The position numbers and the translations under genes were made by a program. A DNA stretch of 15,261 nucleotides from a virus (Duplodnaviria; Heunggongvirae; Uroviricota; Caudoviricetes). Position 1 is the first letter of the stretch; each line of letters opens with the position of its first letter. The notes under the pieces were generated by a model that was not told where the DNA came from, searched no databases, and saw only the letters and a list, made by a program, of their open reading frames with translations. Where the stretch lies: positions 1 to 15,261 of IMG/VR virus record IMGVR_UViG_2545824644_000012. The stretch is one strand, 5' to 3'. Shown piece after piece: positions 5,367-14,044 of the stretch.

Positions 5367-5654
5367 TTAAAGATTAGCGGGGAATTGTCGACGGGCGTGA
5401 ACCACGTTTACAATTTCAATACCTGAAGTTGTCACCCGGTACAAAATTATGTAATTGGGGTGAGCCACAATCTCGCGCAAACCTGGCACTCTGTCGCTTG
5501 GCGGATATAAATACGGATGTTCGGATAACGGCAGGACGCAAGCTCTTAAGCGTTGCCATAAGCGTTCTGCCGCATCTATGTCGAAACGGGCAATATAACT
5601 AGTTATATCATCCAGATCGGTATCTGCGCTTTCAAGCCATAACACGGGTAACAT
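5367..5654 (-). CDS. parE2: ParE/RelE-family type II toxin (ParE2-like)
   Basis: 95-aa ORF starting directly after the antitoxin stop (TAA-ATG); RelE/ParE-like size and sequence; partner of a PaaA2-like antitoxin. Confidence 0.8.
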   Translation of the reverse strand: MLPVLWLESADTDLDDITSYIARFDIDAAERLWQRLRACVLPLSEHPYLYPPSDRVPGLREIVAHPNYIILYRVTTSGIEIVNVVHARRQFPANL

Positions 5655-5846
5655 TTACTGCTCTCTCCGTTCCTTGCGAATTTTGGCAAAGCGTTCTGCC
5701 ATTCTGCGCTCAACTTCATCATGTGGAATAGCAGGACGTGGATCAGCAAGGCTTGCGGCTACTTTTGCGCGTAACCATTCGTTATAACTGTTTTCTTGCT
5801 CAACGGTTTCAAATTCAGAAACCATTGGTGAAAGGGCTGTATTCAT
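5655..5846 (-). CDS. paaA2: PaaA2-like antitoxin (63 aa)
   Basis: Using the internal Met gives MNTALSPMVSEFETVEQENSYNEWLRAKVAASLADPRPAIPHDEVERRMAERFAKIRKERREQ, near-identical to the recalled E. coli O157 PaaA2. AGGAGG 6 nt upstream of this ATG; the longer track ORF (to 5909) would overlap the repressor gene. Confidence 0.85.
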   Translation of the reverse strand: MNTALSPMVSEFETVEQENSYNEWLRAKVAASLADPRPAIPHDEVERRMAERFAKIRKERREQ

Positions 5847-6385: not shown

Positions 6386-6646
6386 ATGCTCAATAGCACC
6401 CGTGAAAAAATTAAGCAGAAATACACACAGGCTGAAATAGGACGCTATATGGGAGTAACCCAACAAACTGTTTGGCAATGGTTTAGCTTGGGTATTCCTC
6501 CCAAACAGGTAATCCCTTTATGCCAACTAATGCAGTGGGGGGTTACTCCTCACGAACTCCGACCTGATATTTATCCTAACCCAACAGACGGCTTGCCTGC
6601 TGAGTTTCAGACTAGCACACAGCCAGCGACGGGAGTTGATTCATGA
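6386..6646 (+). CDS. Cro-like HTH regulator (YdaS family)
   Basis: 86-aa ORF; GAGGAGGG Shine-Dalgarno; motif GVTQQTVWQW..GIPP...ELRPD typical of YdaS/Cro-like proteins; divergent from the repressor. Confidence 0.7.
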   Translation: MLNSTREKIKQKYTQAEIGRYMGVTQQTVWQWFSLGIPPKQVIPLCQLMQWGVTPHELRPDIYPNPTDGLPAEFQTSTQPATGVDS

Positions 6647-7068
6647 AAATCAAGCATGAGCACATCCGCATGGCGATGAATGCCTGGGCATATCCTGACG
6701 GTGAGAAAGTTCCCGCAGCTGAAATAGCCCGGACTTATTTCGAACTGGGGATGACGTTCCCGGAACTGTACGACGACACTCATCCTGAGGCCCTGGCTCG
6801 TAATACCCAGAAAATTTTCCGTTGGCTGGATAAAGACACCCATGATGCTGTTGAAAAAATTCAGGCTCTGTTACCGGCGATCGAAAAGGCGATGCCGCCT
6901 TTGCTGGTGGCCCGTATGCGCAGTCACAGTTCTGAGTACTACCGGGAGATTGTCGAACGGCGGGATCGGCTGGTGAAGGATGTCGACGATTTTGTTGCGT
7001 CAGCGGTCGTTTTGTATGACCAGATAAATCGCGGCGGCCCGGCAGGGAATGCTGTGGTGATGCACTAA
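6643..7068 (+). CDS. YdaT-family protein (CII-like regulator / putative toxin)
   Basis: 141-aa ORF beginning MKIKHEHI, as recalled for Rac YdaT; ATG overlaps the cro-like stop (ATGA), matching the ydaS-ydaT arrangement. Confidence 0.6.
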   Translation: MKIKHEHIRMAMNAWAYPDGEKVPAAEIARTYFELGMTFPELYDDTHPEALARNTQKIFRWLDKDTHDAVEKIQALLPAIEKAMPPLLVARMRSHSSEYYREIVERRDRLVKDVDDFVASAVVLYDQINRGGPAGNAVVMH

Positions 7069-7090
7069 AAGCACGGTGTTCGGGGGTTTT

Positions 7091-8059
7091 ATGAGCAGCA
7101 AGCTTCATGGTCTTGTCTGGGAAGGATGCGCCTTCACTGGCATGATCTTATCAAGGGTGGCAGTAATGGCCCGTCTTGCAGATTACAGCAATGACGAGGG
7201 GGTGTCATGGCCTGCTATGGAAACGATCCGGCGTCAGATCGGTGCCAGAAGTGAATCCACCGTGAAATCTGCGATTGCAGAACTGGCGAAAGAGGGCTGG
7301 CTGACGAAGGAAGAGCGTAAGATCGGTGGGCGTAACGTAAGCAATATCTATCGGCTTAATGTGGAAAAACTCGAAGCAGCGGCAGCGGCGGCGCGTGAGG
7401 CATATAAACCGAAAAGAAAAATTAGCCCGGCAAAAAATGACCCGTTAACAGTTGACCCGTCAAATATTGACCCCTCAACGGTTGACCCGTCAAATTCTGA
7501 GGGGTCAACCATTGATAAAAAACAGCCGATTAGGGGGGCGATGATTGACCCCGATCCGTCAGTATTAAAACCTGATCCGTCAGATAAAAGATCTTCTTGT
7601 CCGGACGTTTCACTTCCGGACGAAAAAAAATCATCTCCGGTTGAACGCTTTCTGGATAAACACCCTGATGCGCATACGTGGAATGTGCCGAAGCGACAGT
7701 GGGGAACCCGTGATGATATTACCTGTGCGCAGTGGATCTGGGGGCGTGTTGTTGCGCTGTATGAACACGCAGCCAGTGATGATGGTGAGGTTTCTCGCCC
7801 CAGAGAGCCAAACTGGACGACATGGGCTAACGATGTCCGGATGATGCGCATGCTGGATGGCCGCAGTCACCGGCAGATTTGTGAAATGTTCAGTCGGGTG
7901 CAGCGGGATCCGTTCTGGGTAAAAAATATCATGAGTCCGGCAAAACTGCGCGAAAAATGGGATGAACTGGTCATTCGTCTTGGGCGTGGGCCTGCGCAGA
8001 GTTGCGTGAATCATATTTCTGAACCGGACACTGAAATTCCACCGGGTTTCAGGGGGTAA
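7091..8059 (+). CDS. Replication initiator (lambda O-like / YdaU-like, N-terminal winged-helix)
   Basis: ORF upstream of the DnaC-like gene; N-terminal winged-helix region (VSWPAMETIRRQIGARSESTVKSAIAELAKEGWLT); iteron repeats lie inside the gene. Start placed at ATG 7091 (GGGGG 4 nt upstream); the track's GTG 7076 has no ribosome-binding site. Confidence 0.7.
   Translation: MSSKLHGLVWEGCAFTGMILSRVAVMARLADYSNDEGVSWPAMETIRRQIGARSESTVKSAIAELAKEGWLTKEERKIGGRNVSNIYRLNVEKLEAAAAAAREAYKPKRKISPAKNDPLTVDPSNIDPSTVDPSNSEGSTIDKKQPIRGAMIDPDPSVLKPDPSDKRSSCPDVSLPDEKKSSPVERFLDKHPDAHTWNVPKRQWGTRDDITCAQWIWGRVVALYEHAASDDGEVSRPREPNWTTWANDVRMMRMLDGRSHRQICEMFSRVQRDPFWVKNIMSPAKLREKWDELVIRLGRGPAQSCVNHISEPDTEIPPGFRG
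7438..7585. repeat. Iteron-like repeats inside the initiator gene; candidate origin of replication
   Basis: TTGACCC direct repeats at 7452, 7467 and 7482 (15-bp period), an inverted copy GGGTCAA at 7502-7508, another TTGACCC at 7545, an A-rich segment at 7511-7525, and two GATCCGTCAG repeats at 7553 and 7574. Analogous to ori-lambda inside gene O. Confidence 0.45.
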
Positions 8060-8065
8060 CTGACC

Positions 8066-8818
8066 ATGAAAGATATCGCGACAGTTGCAGTTGGTGTTCT
8101 GGAACGCATCCGCAGACTGGCTCCTGAGCACGTTCCCGTGCCGTACAGTACGACGGAGGAGTGGCGCGAGTGGCAACTTGCCGAAGGCCGGAAATACTGC
8201 GAGGAGATTAACCGCCGGAATCGTCAGTTGCGGGTGGAAAAAATCCTGAACCGTTCGGGCATCCAGCCGCTGCACCGCAAATGTTCGTTCGCGAATTACC
8301 AGGTGCGGAACGACGGGCAGAAACATGCGCTGAGCCAGGCTAAATCCATCGCTGAGGAAATGATGACCGGTTATACAAACTTCGTGTTCAGCGGGAATCC
8401 GGGAACCGGAAAAAATCATCTGGCGGCGGCTGTGGGTAATCGTCTGCTGAAGGCTGGTAAATCCGTGATAGTGGTCACCGTGGCGGATGTGATGAGCGCG
8501 TTACATGCCAGCTATGACGACGGGCTGTCAGGGGAAAAATTTTTGCGTGAACTGTGCGAAGTGGACCTCCTGGTTCTTGACGAAATTGGCATCCAGCGTG
8601 AGACGAAAAACGAGCAGGTGGTACTGCACCAGATTGTTGACCGCCGGACGGCATCACTGTGCAGTGTCGGGATGCTGACAAACCTGAATCATGCCGCAAT
8701 GAGCACGCTTCTTGGTGAGAGGATTATGGACAGGATGACCATGAACGGTGGTCGCTGGGTGAGTTTTAACTGGGAAAGCTGGCGTCCCAATGTCAGCCAT
8801 CTGAGAGTATTGAAGTAA
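8066..8818 (+). CDS. DnaC-like helicase loader (IstB-like AAA+ ATPase)
   Basis: 250-aa ORF; Walker [16 protein letters not shown] and Walker [10 protein letters not shown]; overall very similar to recalled E. coli DnaC ([13 protein letters not shown]..., MLTN..., LGERVMDRM). Confidence 0.9.
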
Positions 8819-8840
8819 TTTTTATCCGGAGGAAATTTTA

Positions 8841-9557
8841 ATGGAAACCGTTTTTGACGCACTGAAAGCACTGAAAAGAGCCTCTTCACAGGTAGTGGCG
8901 GCCCGCCTTGGAATCAGCCGTGAAGATGCGGTCAACGAACTGTGGAAACTGAAGCGCCGTGGTGAAGCGGATAACAAGGGGTCGATGTGGTGGCTGATTC
9001 AGGCTGGTGAAAGTGAACCTGTGTCACAGGTACCGAAAGTGACAGCGCAAATGCTGACTGAGGCGATTGAACAACATGGCCCACAAACGGCGGATGAACT
9101 GGCACTGATGTTCGGAATTACCTCCCGCCGGGCGAATTCATCGCTGGCGATGGCAATCAGCAAAGGGCGTCTGATTCGCGTGAATCAGGGCGGTAAATTT
9201 CGTTACTGCATACCGGGCGCTGATTTACCGGCAGAGCCGGAAGCTGCATCCGTAGCGGAAACGGATGGTAAAGCCTTTCCTCAGCCAGCAGGAGTTGCGT
9301 TACCGGTACAGGAAGCGGCGACACAGGAAGAAATTAAAACAGATACTGTGGCGGACATTGTGCAGTCGCTGCCATCGTTTACCGAAACGAAAGCAGATGA
9401 CCTGATTCTACCATCGCTGAATGTGGCTAACCGCGAGCTGCGCCGGGCGAAAAGTCATGTCCAGAAGTGGGAGCGTGTCTGTGCCGCGCTGCGGGAACTG
9501 AACAAACACAGGGATATTCTCCGGGATATTACCACCACCAGAGAGCAGCAACAGTGA
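8841..9557 (+). CDS. Hypothetical protein with two winged-helix-like segments and a C-terminal coiled-coil (possibly DUF1627-like)
   Basis: 238-aa ORF with GGAGG Shine-Dalgarno; two HTH-like segments ([17 protein letters not shown] and [26 protein letters not shown]); function unknown. Confidence 0.6.
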
Positions 9558-9871
9558 GTGGCTGGAAGACGTGGTGCCGGGCGGAAATCCTGATACTCCG
9601 GCAGTGTGCGGGAACAATGACGGTGGAATGCATCGGGATGCTTATTGGTCGTAGTGAGGCTGCGGTCAGAACGAAAGCGCGGGAACTGGGTATTAGTATG
9701 ATGTTACGGGGTGATTATCACCAGTCAGCAAAATATCCGCAGAGTGATATTGAGCTGGCGCGACAGCAGCATCAGCGTGGCGTGTCGAGGAGAGAAATCG
9801 CCAGAAAATTCGGAATGCCGTTGCGCACAGTGAATAACTACGTTTATTTCGACAGGAGGGTGTCTGCGTGA
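9554..9871 (+). CDS. Small HTH protein, NinH-like C-terminus
   Basis: GTG start overlapping the upstream stop (GTGA); alternative ATG at 9617. C-terminal [21 protein letters not shown] resembles lambda NinH (EVARRLKCSRGTVRKYV). Confidence 0.5.
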
Positions 9872-10095
9872 AAATCCTGTATCAGGATTACGGCCCGGTG
9901 GGGCAGGTGCTTATCAGCAGTACTGTAATGGAGTTCCGGAAGCATAACCGTGTGGTGGATTCTGTGCTGTTAACCTGTCCGGGGATATCGGCGAGTCGTG
10001 CAGGTGTGTTTATTATGAAGACGAAATTATATGGCAGTAAGGCGTGGATAAAGAAGGCGTATCGTGTAGCGTTGCAGGAGGTTAACAGTGAGTGA
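9868..10095 (+). CDS. Hypothetical 75-aa protein
   Basis: GTG start overlapping the upstream stop; AGGAGGG 7 nt upstream; no recognisable domain. Confidence 0.45.
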   Translation: MKILYQDYGPVGQVLISSTVMEFRKHNRVVDSVLLTCPGISASRAGVFIMKTKLYGSKAWIKKAYRVALQEVNSE

Positions 10096-10399
10096 AATTA
10101 AAGAAATGCCGGTAGTTCGTGACGAATATGGCTACTGGACACATCCTGAATATGAAAAATTCTGTGATGGTCGGGAGAATATTTCAACGGAAGAATTTAA
10201 CGCGTGGATGGAGGCAAATAATCTTCAGTGGACTATCTGCACTATGGATGAAGATGATTTTAACCTGGACGCAGATGGCCCTGATATTTCAGCATGGGAA
10301 CCGGAACGACCAGAGGGCGATGGCTGGTTTATTGGTTCCATTCATGATACGGAAGATGGCCCGGTTTGTGTCTGGTTGCGAAATAAGGCTGAAGCATAA
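10088..10399 (+). CDS. Hypothetical strongly acidic 103-aa protein
   Basis: GTG start with AGGAGG 6 nt upstream, overlapping the upstream stop. Roughly 29 Asp/Glu against about 7 Lys/Arg; several conserved-looking Trp residues. Confidence 0.55.
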   Translation: MSEIKEMPVVRDEYGYWTHPEYEKFCDGRENISTEEFNAWMEANNLQWTICTMDEDDFNLDADGPDISAWEPERPEGDGWFIGSIHDTEDGPVCVWLRNKAEA

Positions 10400-10745
10400 A
10401 GGAGATAAACCAACTAACAACTAAATACTGAAGATTTAAATCAGAAACGATTTTTATTAAATCCTTAACCGGAGGGATTCCTGCACCCTCAGAATATCAG
10501 GAGGCCGCCCGAAAGGGCGGTAAGAAATGAAACATTATTTAGAAAAAATTACCCACGAAAGAGCAGAACAACAGAGTTTCTGTTTTTCATTCTGTTTATA
10601 GTGTTGATGATACCGATATCCCCGCTATTACTGGTCTGGATAATTGGAAGGACATTTGAACCAGTTATTGAGCTATATACCGATGTGACATGGGAATCAT
10701 TCAGCGCACTGCACAATAAAATTAATCCGTATAAGGAAAACTGAT

Positions 10746-11593: not shown

Positions 11594-11749
11594 ATGAAGC
11601 AGCAAAAGGCGATGTTAATCGCCCTGATCGTCATCTGTTTAACCGTCATAGTGACGGCACTGGTAACGAGGAAAGACCTCTGCGAGGTGCGAATCCGAAC
11701 CGGTCAGACGGAGGTCGCTGTCTTCGTAGACTACGAATCTGAGAAGTAA
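11594..11749 (+). CDS. hok: Hok/Gef-family type I toxin (HokD/RelF-like)
   Basis: 51-aa ORF MKQQKAMLIALIVICLTVIVTALVTRKDLCEVRIRTGQTEVAVFVDYESEK with the Hok signature; AAGGAG upstream. The in-frame upstream ATG at 11537 (track ORF) would add a 19-aa extension. Confidence 0.85.
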   Translation: MKQQKAMLIALIVICLTVIVTALVTRKDLCEVRIRTGQTEVAVFVDYESEK

Positions 11750-13670: not shown

Positions 13671-14044
13671 ATGCTCATAGATTTGGTTTTACCTTACCCG
13701 CCGACGGTGAACACTTACTGGAGACGCCGTGGCAGCACATATTTTGTATCAAAAGCAGGGGAGCGTTATCGCCGGCAGTGGCGCTTATTGTTCGCCAGCA
13801 GCGACTGAAATTAAGCCTGTCCGGACGGCTGGCAATAAAAATTATTGCAGAGCCACCGGATAAGCGTCGTCGCGACCTGGACAATATTCTGAAAGCACCG
13901 CTGGATGCGCTGACGCATGCGGGAGTGCTTATTGATGACGAGCAGTTTGATGAAATCAATATTGTACGTGGTCAGCCAGTATCTGGTGGACGTCTGGGGG
14001 TGAAGATTTACCCCATAATGCTTGAAGGGCAGGTCAAAAAATGA
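13671..14044 (+). pseudogene. rusA: rusA Holliday-junction resolvase, apparently disrupted by a -1 frameshift
   Basis: From ATG 13671 (AAGAGG 6 nt upstream) the frame reads MLIDLVLPYPPTVNTYWRRRGSTYFVSKAGERYRR, matching the RusA N-terminus, then stops at 13806-13808. The RusA C-terminus (AVALIV...PDKRRRDLDN...) continues in the -1 frame to 14044. The shift maps to the G-run near 13774-13776. Confidence 0.65.

Follow-up and report, generated by a model that had tools for sequence, protein, structure and literature searches.

The question raised by this locus is what an extremely acidic small protein contributes to the prophage that encodes it. The window, i.e., the whole stretch of 15,261 nt that was analysed, represents the early region of a Rac-like lambdoid prophage that sits beside ompW in E. 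coli, and is 100% identical to NZ_AP042495.1. An earlier note on this DNA had suggested, as a speculative reading, that a 103-aa product encoded here may be a DNA mimic or anti-restriction protein. The gene and its immediate surroundings comprise the following features:

9868..10095, + strand: 75-aa basic ORF, pI 9.8, whose stop overlaps the start of the acidic gene by 8 nt
10076..10081, + strand: Shine-Dalgarno sequence AGGAGG, with a 6-nt spacer to the start codon, read directly from the sequence
10088..10399, + strand: CDS of the acidic protein, 103 aa, GTG start, TAA stop (WP_021499163.1, PHROG 1372, orf184 family)

Both the reading frame and the AGGAGG ribosome-binding site claimed in the earlier note are exact. 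Its count of about 29 acidic residues was too high, as 15 Glu and 11 Asp amount to 26, and its about seven basic residues and several Trp agree with 7 Lys and Arg and 6 Trp; in addition, there are 2 His and 3 Cys. The note had asked for a calculation of pI and charge, and the resulting pI of 4.05 and net charge of −19 over 103 aa, together with the excess of Asp and Glu over Lys and Arg, bear out the view that the composition is like that of DNA mimics. With −0.18 charges per residue, the protein, labelled ‘hypothetical protein’ in RefSeq, is the most acidic among the 31 annotated prophage proteins (−0.09 for the runner-up).

Comparison of 37 DNA alleles from E. coli prophages, drawn from 70 related loci in IMG/VR and other sources, revealed a median dN/dS of ~0.10, and in 31 of the 37 alleles ATG replaces GTG at the same start codon. 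Because of this low ratio and the conserved position of the start codon, 10088-10399 is a genuine gene under purifying selection and not a chance ORF. The allele in the window is rare, with only 4 of 658 matching records being at least 95% identical to 10088-10399. Most matches are ~90% identical, compared to ~94% for the surrounding 2.5-kb region in many E. coli genomes, so that the acidic gene is more diverged than its flanks.

The acidic gene is located in a run of early genes on the same strand, after O-like and DnaC-like replication genes and before a Q-like antiterminator. On its own strand, the gene is not flanked by any promoter-like or terminator-like site which, together with the 8-nt overlap, indicates that it is probably transcribed as part of the early rightward operon. 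The overlap with the 75-aa ORF also suggests translational coupling within this operon. We infer early timing, so that the protein is probably made upon induction or in the lytic cycle rather than in the lysogenic state. The 75-aa ORF itself has no family match, shows no similarity to the ORFs upstream of the homologs in phages mEp213 and D6, and is not a conserved partner of the acidic family. The arrangement of a basic ORF and an acidic gene resembles a toxin-antitoxin pair, with a partner that is not conserved elsewhere. A type II toxin-antitoxin or nuclease-immunity pair was considered and rejected because there is no conserved adjacent partner, given that unrelated ORFs precede the gene in the window, in mEp213, and in D6.

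Scans of the acidic protein against Pfam, NCBIfam, and PADLOC gave no match. In PHROGs, it corresponds to phrog_1372, a family of unknown function (E=3.6e-55, residues 1-102). BLASTP aligns it to AFM76385.1 of mEp213 with 45% identity over 100 residues (E=1e-33), i.e., it shares full-length sequence similarity with the family of this protein, which is the orf184 (mEp213_045) of Silas et al. (bioRxiv 10.1101/2023.04.06.535777). No mention of the family was found in the main text of the literature, and the homolog surfaced only in the supplements of that study.

A word-indexed search identified 245 close homologs, every one of them from Enterobacterales and annotated as ‘hypothetical’, and a profile search covering 1.84 billion cluster representatives (50%-identity clusters) yielded 727 proteins at E<=1e-3. 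By tblastn, the family is present in 79 phage genomes. Carriers include the lambdoid phages mEp460, mEp213, and Rac-SA53, P1-like D6, Yersinia PY54, and Klebsiella phages, as well as temperate phages of Burkholderia, Pseudomonas, Vibrio, Acinetobacter, and Ralstonia. The family is also found on 2,032 plasmids, mostly Klebsiella IncF, of which 1,760 are conjugative, and in 655 of 5,426 complete E. coli genomes (12%), with many Shiga-toxin-producing strains among them and frequently with two copies per genome. Both E. coli loci that were inspected are prophages, and every family context inspected is a mobile element. In a set of 243 domains, net charge averages −14.5 (sd 3.2), and acidic residues make up 21% and basic residues 7%, showing acidity to be a family trait. 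Judged by these sequence comparisons, the gene in the window is a stand-alone copy of a widespread, unnamed acidic domain of ~100 aa that belongs to mobile elements. The domain is common in E. coli and in proteobacterial temperate phages and plasmids, yet has no name and no Pfam or NCBIfam model.

In ~60% of the distant relatives, the domain is fused to other modules: of the 129 distant representatives in which the domain is complete, 53 are stand-alone, and the domain is C-terminal in 36, N-terminal in 39, and in the middle of the protein in one. Fusion partners include Lar_restr_allev (three cases), an Rv2179c-like 3′-5′ exonuclease of the DEDDh type (two cases), RdgC, Tad2-like, DHH/DHHA1, and crAss001_48-related domains. 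The 305-aa distant relative P0134 carries two tandem copies connected by a short linker, and the domain may therefore act as a dimer. The most frequent fusion partner ends in the motif ...LVKAGALILAEIERLDR and matched nothing in Pfam, NCBIfam, or the PDB. A recurrent partner domain of ~95 aa, ER.RQ..EGW..EHDD..GELA.AA.CY...WPW...WKP..RRDLVKAGALILAEIERLDR, is carried by P0155, P0172, P0179, P0209, P0224, P0225, P0227, and P0261. Many phage proteins contain it (PHROGs 9763, 9434, 6628, and others, none with an assigned function), and it had no sequence match in Pfam, NCBIfam, or PDB.

The conserved residues of the domain and its predicted structure define three segments of the protein:

10118..10147, + strand: N-terminal motif R11-D-x-x-G15-x-W17-x-H19-P20, from conservation in 129 distant domains
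10244..10324, + strand: acidic coil, residues 53-79, DSSP coil with pLDDT 64-74 in both AlphaFold2 models
10325..10384, + strand: beta-hairpin W80-F-x-G-S-I-H-D-T-E-D-G-P-V-C-x-W96-x-R98, strands 80-88 and 91-99, pLDDT ~90

Over the 129 distant domains, R11 is conserved in 95%, G15 in 100%, W17 in 89%, H19 in 98%, and P20 in 93%. The remaining conserved positions are W40, W70, P72, P75, G77, G79, W80, F81, I85, G91, P92, and W96, and the window protein has all positions of the core motif R-D-x-x-G-x-W-x-H-P ... W-x-P-x-x-P-x-G-x-G-W-F-x-x-S-I-H-D-T-E-D-G-P-x-C-x-W-x-R. Basic residues are nearly confined to two conserved arginines, R11 and R98. By column conservation, the beta-hairpin with its acidic turn D87/E89/D90 is the most conserved part of the domain, and the turn D87-T-E89-D90 is acidic in 84-92% of the relatives.

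AlphaFold2 predicted a short N-terminal strand, helices 20-26 and 34-43, strand 46-52, the coil 53-79, and the hairpin 80-88/91-99. The model based on 105 close homologs reached a pLDDT of 81 and a pTM of 0.69, and a more diverse alignment increased these values to 86.2 and 0.78 with unchanged topology. The coil harbors 11 of the 26 Asp and Glu residues and is 6 residues shorter than the corresponding stretch of orf184 (BLASTP gap), for which the published coordinates show a pLDDT of ~95-97. Two further readings of the sequence were dropped. A His/Cys metal site is disfavored by the loss of C26, by C94 being only 78% conserved in distant relatives, and by the burial of H19, and an EF-hand-like D61-A-D-G-P-D66 has a non-canonical spacing and is acidic at D61 in only 60% and at D66 in only 57% of distant relatives.

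No structural neighbor of the AlphaFold model was found in the PDB, and the sequence search detected no similarity to any solved structure, known mimics included. The comparison with known DNA mimics that the earlier note had suggested thus returned neither a mimic homolog nor a mimic fold, and the acidic protein resembles no known DNA mimic.

For the geometry of the charges, we analysed the CA atoms and charged side-chain atoms in the published AlphaFold coordinates of orf184 (supplement of Silas et al.; pLDDT mostly 95-98), a 45%-identical homolog with a longer ordered stretch in place of the coil of the window protein. The model measures ~22 x 32 x 41 Å and is thus thicker than a DNA duplex. 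Its 23 carboxylates are isotropic, with a mean resultant length of 0.15 compared to 0.22 ± 0.07 for random surface residues. When ideal B-DNA phosphates were superposed by a RANSAC-type procedure, at most 8 of the 23 carboxylates came to lie within 3 Å, compared to 7.6 ± 0.7 for random surface points; the test is a crude one that uses only the monomer, straight B-DNA, and orf184 in place of the window protein. The carboxylates of the orf184 monomer are accordingly not arranged like the phosphates of a straight B-DNA duplex, and in this model the negative charge forms a uniform coat rather than a DNA-like track, at least in the monomer on straight DNA.

In contrast to the carboxylates, which are spread over the whole surface, the conserved Trp, His, Pro, Phe, and Ile as well as R101 are buried in the orf184 model, with 18-26 CA neighbors compared to a median of 14. 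These include W14 and H16, the equivalents of W17 and H19, as well as W83, F84, I88, W99, and R101, the latter forming a salt bridge to E44. In this model, the conserved motif thus makes up the interior of the fold instead of lining an exposed active site, and the burial of its residues together with the distribution of the carboxylates favors a charge-displaying scaffold over an active site.

What is known about a function of the family comes from orf184. According to Silas et al. (bioRxiv 10.1101/2023.04.06.535777), orf184 is widespread across the coliphages and is encoded in an accessory region that in other phages holds the anti-restriction gene ral. Its expression leads to cell death via gop-beta-cII, a locus that a P4-like satellite carries in ECOR59, and this death was reconstituted in a laboratory strain. 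The gop-beta-cII locus protects against lambda and P1 (Rousset et al., PMC9122126). Because a 45%-identical homolog triggers gop-beta-cII-dependent death, the family has a demonstrable effect on the cell that is sensed by a bacterial defence. In the same screen, sensitisation of the host to phage was reported for Ocr, Ral, ArdA, IpII, and six novel genes, and orf184 is absent from the section that names the sensitising genes for 45 phage-host combinations (bioRxiv 10.1101/2023.04.06.535777). This absence, limited to what that part of the study lists, points weakly away from a general Type I anti-restriction activity.

The window protein shares with orf184 the PHROG, the conserved motif, the strong acidity (net charge −19 compared to −17 for orf184), and an early accessory location. 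It differs in lacking 6 residues after strand 46-52, where its models have a coil of moderate confidence, and in its genomic position: orf184 follows N in the leftward operon, whereas the window gene belongs to the rightward operon, where it follows the replication genes. Moreover, the triggering of gop-beta-cII is known from the mEp213 homolog alone. The orf184 family had thus already been noticed and partly tested, and the window gene is a further member. New here are the breadth of the family including ~2,000 plasmids, the modular fusions, the lack of a structural neighbor, and the lack of a DNA-like charge geometry.

Based on these data, we tentatively favor a model in which the acidic protein serves mobile elements as a polyanionic binding module without enzymatic activity that is made early, acts on a protein of the host or of a rival element, and can be sensed by gop-beta-cII. 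We infer this mechanism from the compact conserved core and the uniformly negative surface. In this model, the conserved Trp, Pro, Gly, His, and Arg would build a compact alpha/beta core, leaving a uniformly negative surface almost devoid of Lys and Arg. The module would attach to a positively charged, probably nucleic-acid-binding, surface of its target and block or redirect it. In proteins in which the domain is fused to enzymes, it might deliver or accompany these activities. The structural part of the argument is drawn from predicted models, with the geometry taken from the 45%-identical homolog and its longer ordered stretch. Several observations argue against the binding module. As orf184 is not among the genes named as sensitising in the respective section of the screen, the family may serve phage DNA metabolism instead of immune evasion. 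The fusion partners are mostly enzymes acting on nucleic acids or nucleotides, for which a role in DNA or nucleotide metabolism would fit equally well, and a Trp-rich acidic composition would also suit the binding of cationic small molecules.

The genomic contexts of the family bear on the first of these alternatives, according to which the protein would be an accessory factor of DNA metabolism that binds and modulates a replication, recombination, or nuclease component of the host or the element, e.g., as a regulator or inhibitor of a nuclease or phosphoesterase, without a role in immune evasion. We regard this as possible but doubtful. In line with it, the window gene follows the O-like and DnaC-like replication genes, and relatives are fused to a DEDDh exonuclease, DHH/DHHA1, and RdgC. 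A JGI prophage carries the homolog among RdgC, a ParB-like gene, and an integrase, with RdgC and an exonuclease as neighbors in this prophage as well as in PY54. In a Serratia prophage, the homolog is located between Gam/exonuclease and xis/int, next to Gam, a PD-(D/E)XK exonuclease, and a DNA polymerase III theta homolog, and in D6 it abuts a metallophosphoesterase. Klebsiella IncFII(K) plasmids have the gene order finO - PIN - hypothetical - DUF2726 - homolog - PLD-family gene - repA, with a 4-nt overlap between DUF2726 and the homolog. This block is exemplified by positions 6984-9946 of our plasmid locus L087 (K. pneumoniae IncFII/IncFIB plasmid NZ_CP056435.1, homolog WP_004152383.1). As DUF2726 is PD-(D/E)XK-like, the finO-repA block could be a nuclease-related accessory module; the adjacency to DUF2726 was seen only in Klebsiella IncF plasmids. 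The absence of orf184 from the genes that the screen names with a counter-defence phenotype is also consistent with a metabolic role.

However, no conserved neighbor or partner gene was found across the family. The immediate neighbors vary, and the 70 loci of close relatives alone fall into 7 upstream and 6 downstream gene clusters. The contexts inspected consist of variable early or accessory genes throughout, as in mEp213, where the homolog lies just after N, between N and cIII, or in the window, where the early rightward run from the replication genes to Q has variable neighbors and qualifies as an accessory region. Such variable and dispensable early-region genes are better suited to conflict than to core DNA metabolism, and the Lar-like and Tad2-like fusions do not fit a metabolic role. 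The Klebsiella plasmid homolog was also considered as the anti-CRISPR AcrIE10, which was rejected because AcrIE10 is represented by PDB 8JI9 and no PDB sequence matched.

The reading put forward in the earlier note, a classical DNA mimic that fills the groove in which Type I or other restriction-modification enzymes bind DNA, in the manner of Ocr and ArdA, and thereby shields unmodified phage DNA, is unlikely in our assessment. The protein is indeed of a kind found among counter-defence genes, i.e., a mobile-element accessory protein that is small and extremely acidic, with a homolog from the ral region and with Lar-like and Tad2-like fusions among its relatives. It resembles Ocr (T7 gp0.3) and ArdA in being small, encoded on mobile elements, and of a pI of ~4. 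The pI and charge range of Ocr, ArdA, and Arn covers its values of 4.05 and −19 over 103 aa, and acidity is conserved in the family. A DNA mimic would further be consistent with the ral accessory region of the homolog, with the three independent Lar-family fusions, and with DNA methylases next to the gene in some prophages, e.g., in a Pseudomonas prophage in which the homolog is flanked by two of them near the integrase. In addition, Ocr and ArdA, like orf184, set off cell-death back-up systems according to Silas et al. (bioRxiv 10.1101/2023.04.06.535777).

In contrast to Ocr and ArdA, the acidic protein shows no sequence or fold similarity to solved proteins, mimics included, and the homolog monomer, thicker than a duplex, lacks a phosphate-like arrangement of its isotropic carboxylates, whose match to phosphates is at chance level. 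Furthermore, multi-domain proteins employ the acidic domain as one of their modules, and the screen, in the section that names Ocr, Ral, and ArdA among the phage-sensitising genes, reports no anti-restriction phenotype for orf184. Anti-restriction genes are expected in the leading region of conjugative plasmids, whereas the IncF copies inspected lie outside it, either in the finO-repA interval or, in the case of an IncF plasmid from Enterobacter, within the tra operon, where traW and traU flank the gene. In phages, in contrast, the gene is found in early operons. The anti-restriction part of the earlier claim is therefore unsupported, and the DNA-mimic or anti-restriction reading as a whole stands unproven and somewhat disfavored.

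The likeness to two further groups of anti-restriction proteins does not extend to their sequences. Ral of lambda and Lar of Rac act by enhancing modification and are not polyanionic. They are linked to the family by the position of orf184 in the ral accessory region and by the Lar-family domains fused in three distant relatives, but the acidic protein has no homology to either, and the annotation of the window prophage contains no lar or ral. Arn of T4, which is annotated to inhibit the restriction endonuclease McrBC and was included as a control in the Silas screen (bioRxiv 10.1101/2023.04.06.535777), is likewise an acidic phage accessory protein of similar size (92 aa compared to 103 aa), but has no detectable sequence or structural relationship to the acidic protein.

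A binder or sponge that sequesters a cationic or nucleotide-derived metabolite or immune signal (SAM, NAD-derived signals, polyamines) is very improbable: six Trp in 103 aa, the conserved His and Arg, abundant carboxylates, a fusion to Tad2-like (Tad2 being a known signal sponge), and fusions to DHH and DEDDh exonuclease domains that can act on nucleotides would suit it, but the conserved Trp, His, and Pro are buried in the model core and line no open pocket, PDB and BFVD searches revealed no similarity to known sponges, and a net charge of −17 to −19 disfavors anionic nucleotides.

Returning to the binding module, a bolder version, which we consider rather doubtful, is that the family constitutes a new, widespread class of mobile-element effectors with a fold of their own. 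These effectors would inhibit a conserved host factor guarded by the P4 gop-beta-cII locus, with the module serving on its own, as a tandem pair, or in fusions with Lar-like, Tad2-like, exonuclease, and phosphoesterase domains, and being present on ~2,000 plasmids. If true, this would be a new counter-defence or host-takeover family whose target could be found via the existing gop-beta-cII read-out. If the protein were merely another acidic early protein of narrow role, its interest would be modest. One member already provides a clean genetic read-out, i.e., gop-beta-cII-dependent death, and the modular fusions are testable hints on the pathway. The cellular target, once found, would explain both what the phage gains and what gop-beta-cII senses.

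The prophage around the acidic gene shows further features. According to the RefSeq annotation, a RelE/RelB pair adjoins the prophage repressor, a Hok/Gef family gene is also present, and the YdaS-like and RusA genes are frameshifted, indicating that the prophage is partly decayed:

5367-5846, 6386-6659, 11594-11749, and 13671-14044 of the window: RelE/RelB, Hok/Gef, YdaS-like, and RusA set (RefSeq)

Downstream of the acidic gene, a DUF4014 gene (window 10496-10744) is frameshifted as well. Its ATG at 10527 opens an ORF of just 24 codons, whereas the same ATG leads to an intact 72-aa DUF4014 protein in O157:H7 ATCC 43894, which has a run of seven A residues compared to six here (10543-10548); RefSeq retains the gene via a non-canonical ATC start at 10496. 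Between an AGGAGG (10499-10504) and this ATG lies a 7-bp hairpin with a GAAA tetraloop (10504-10521; fold z-score −3.6). The arrangement is identical in the O157 copy, and the hairpin may bring the Shine-Dalgarno sequence nearer to the DUF4014 start codon.
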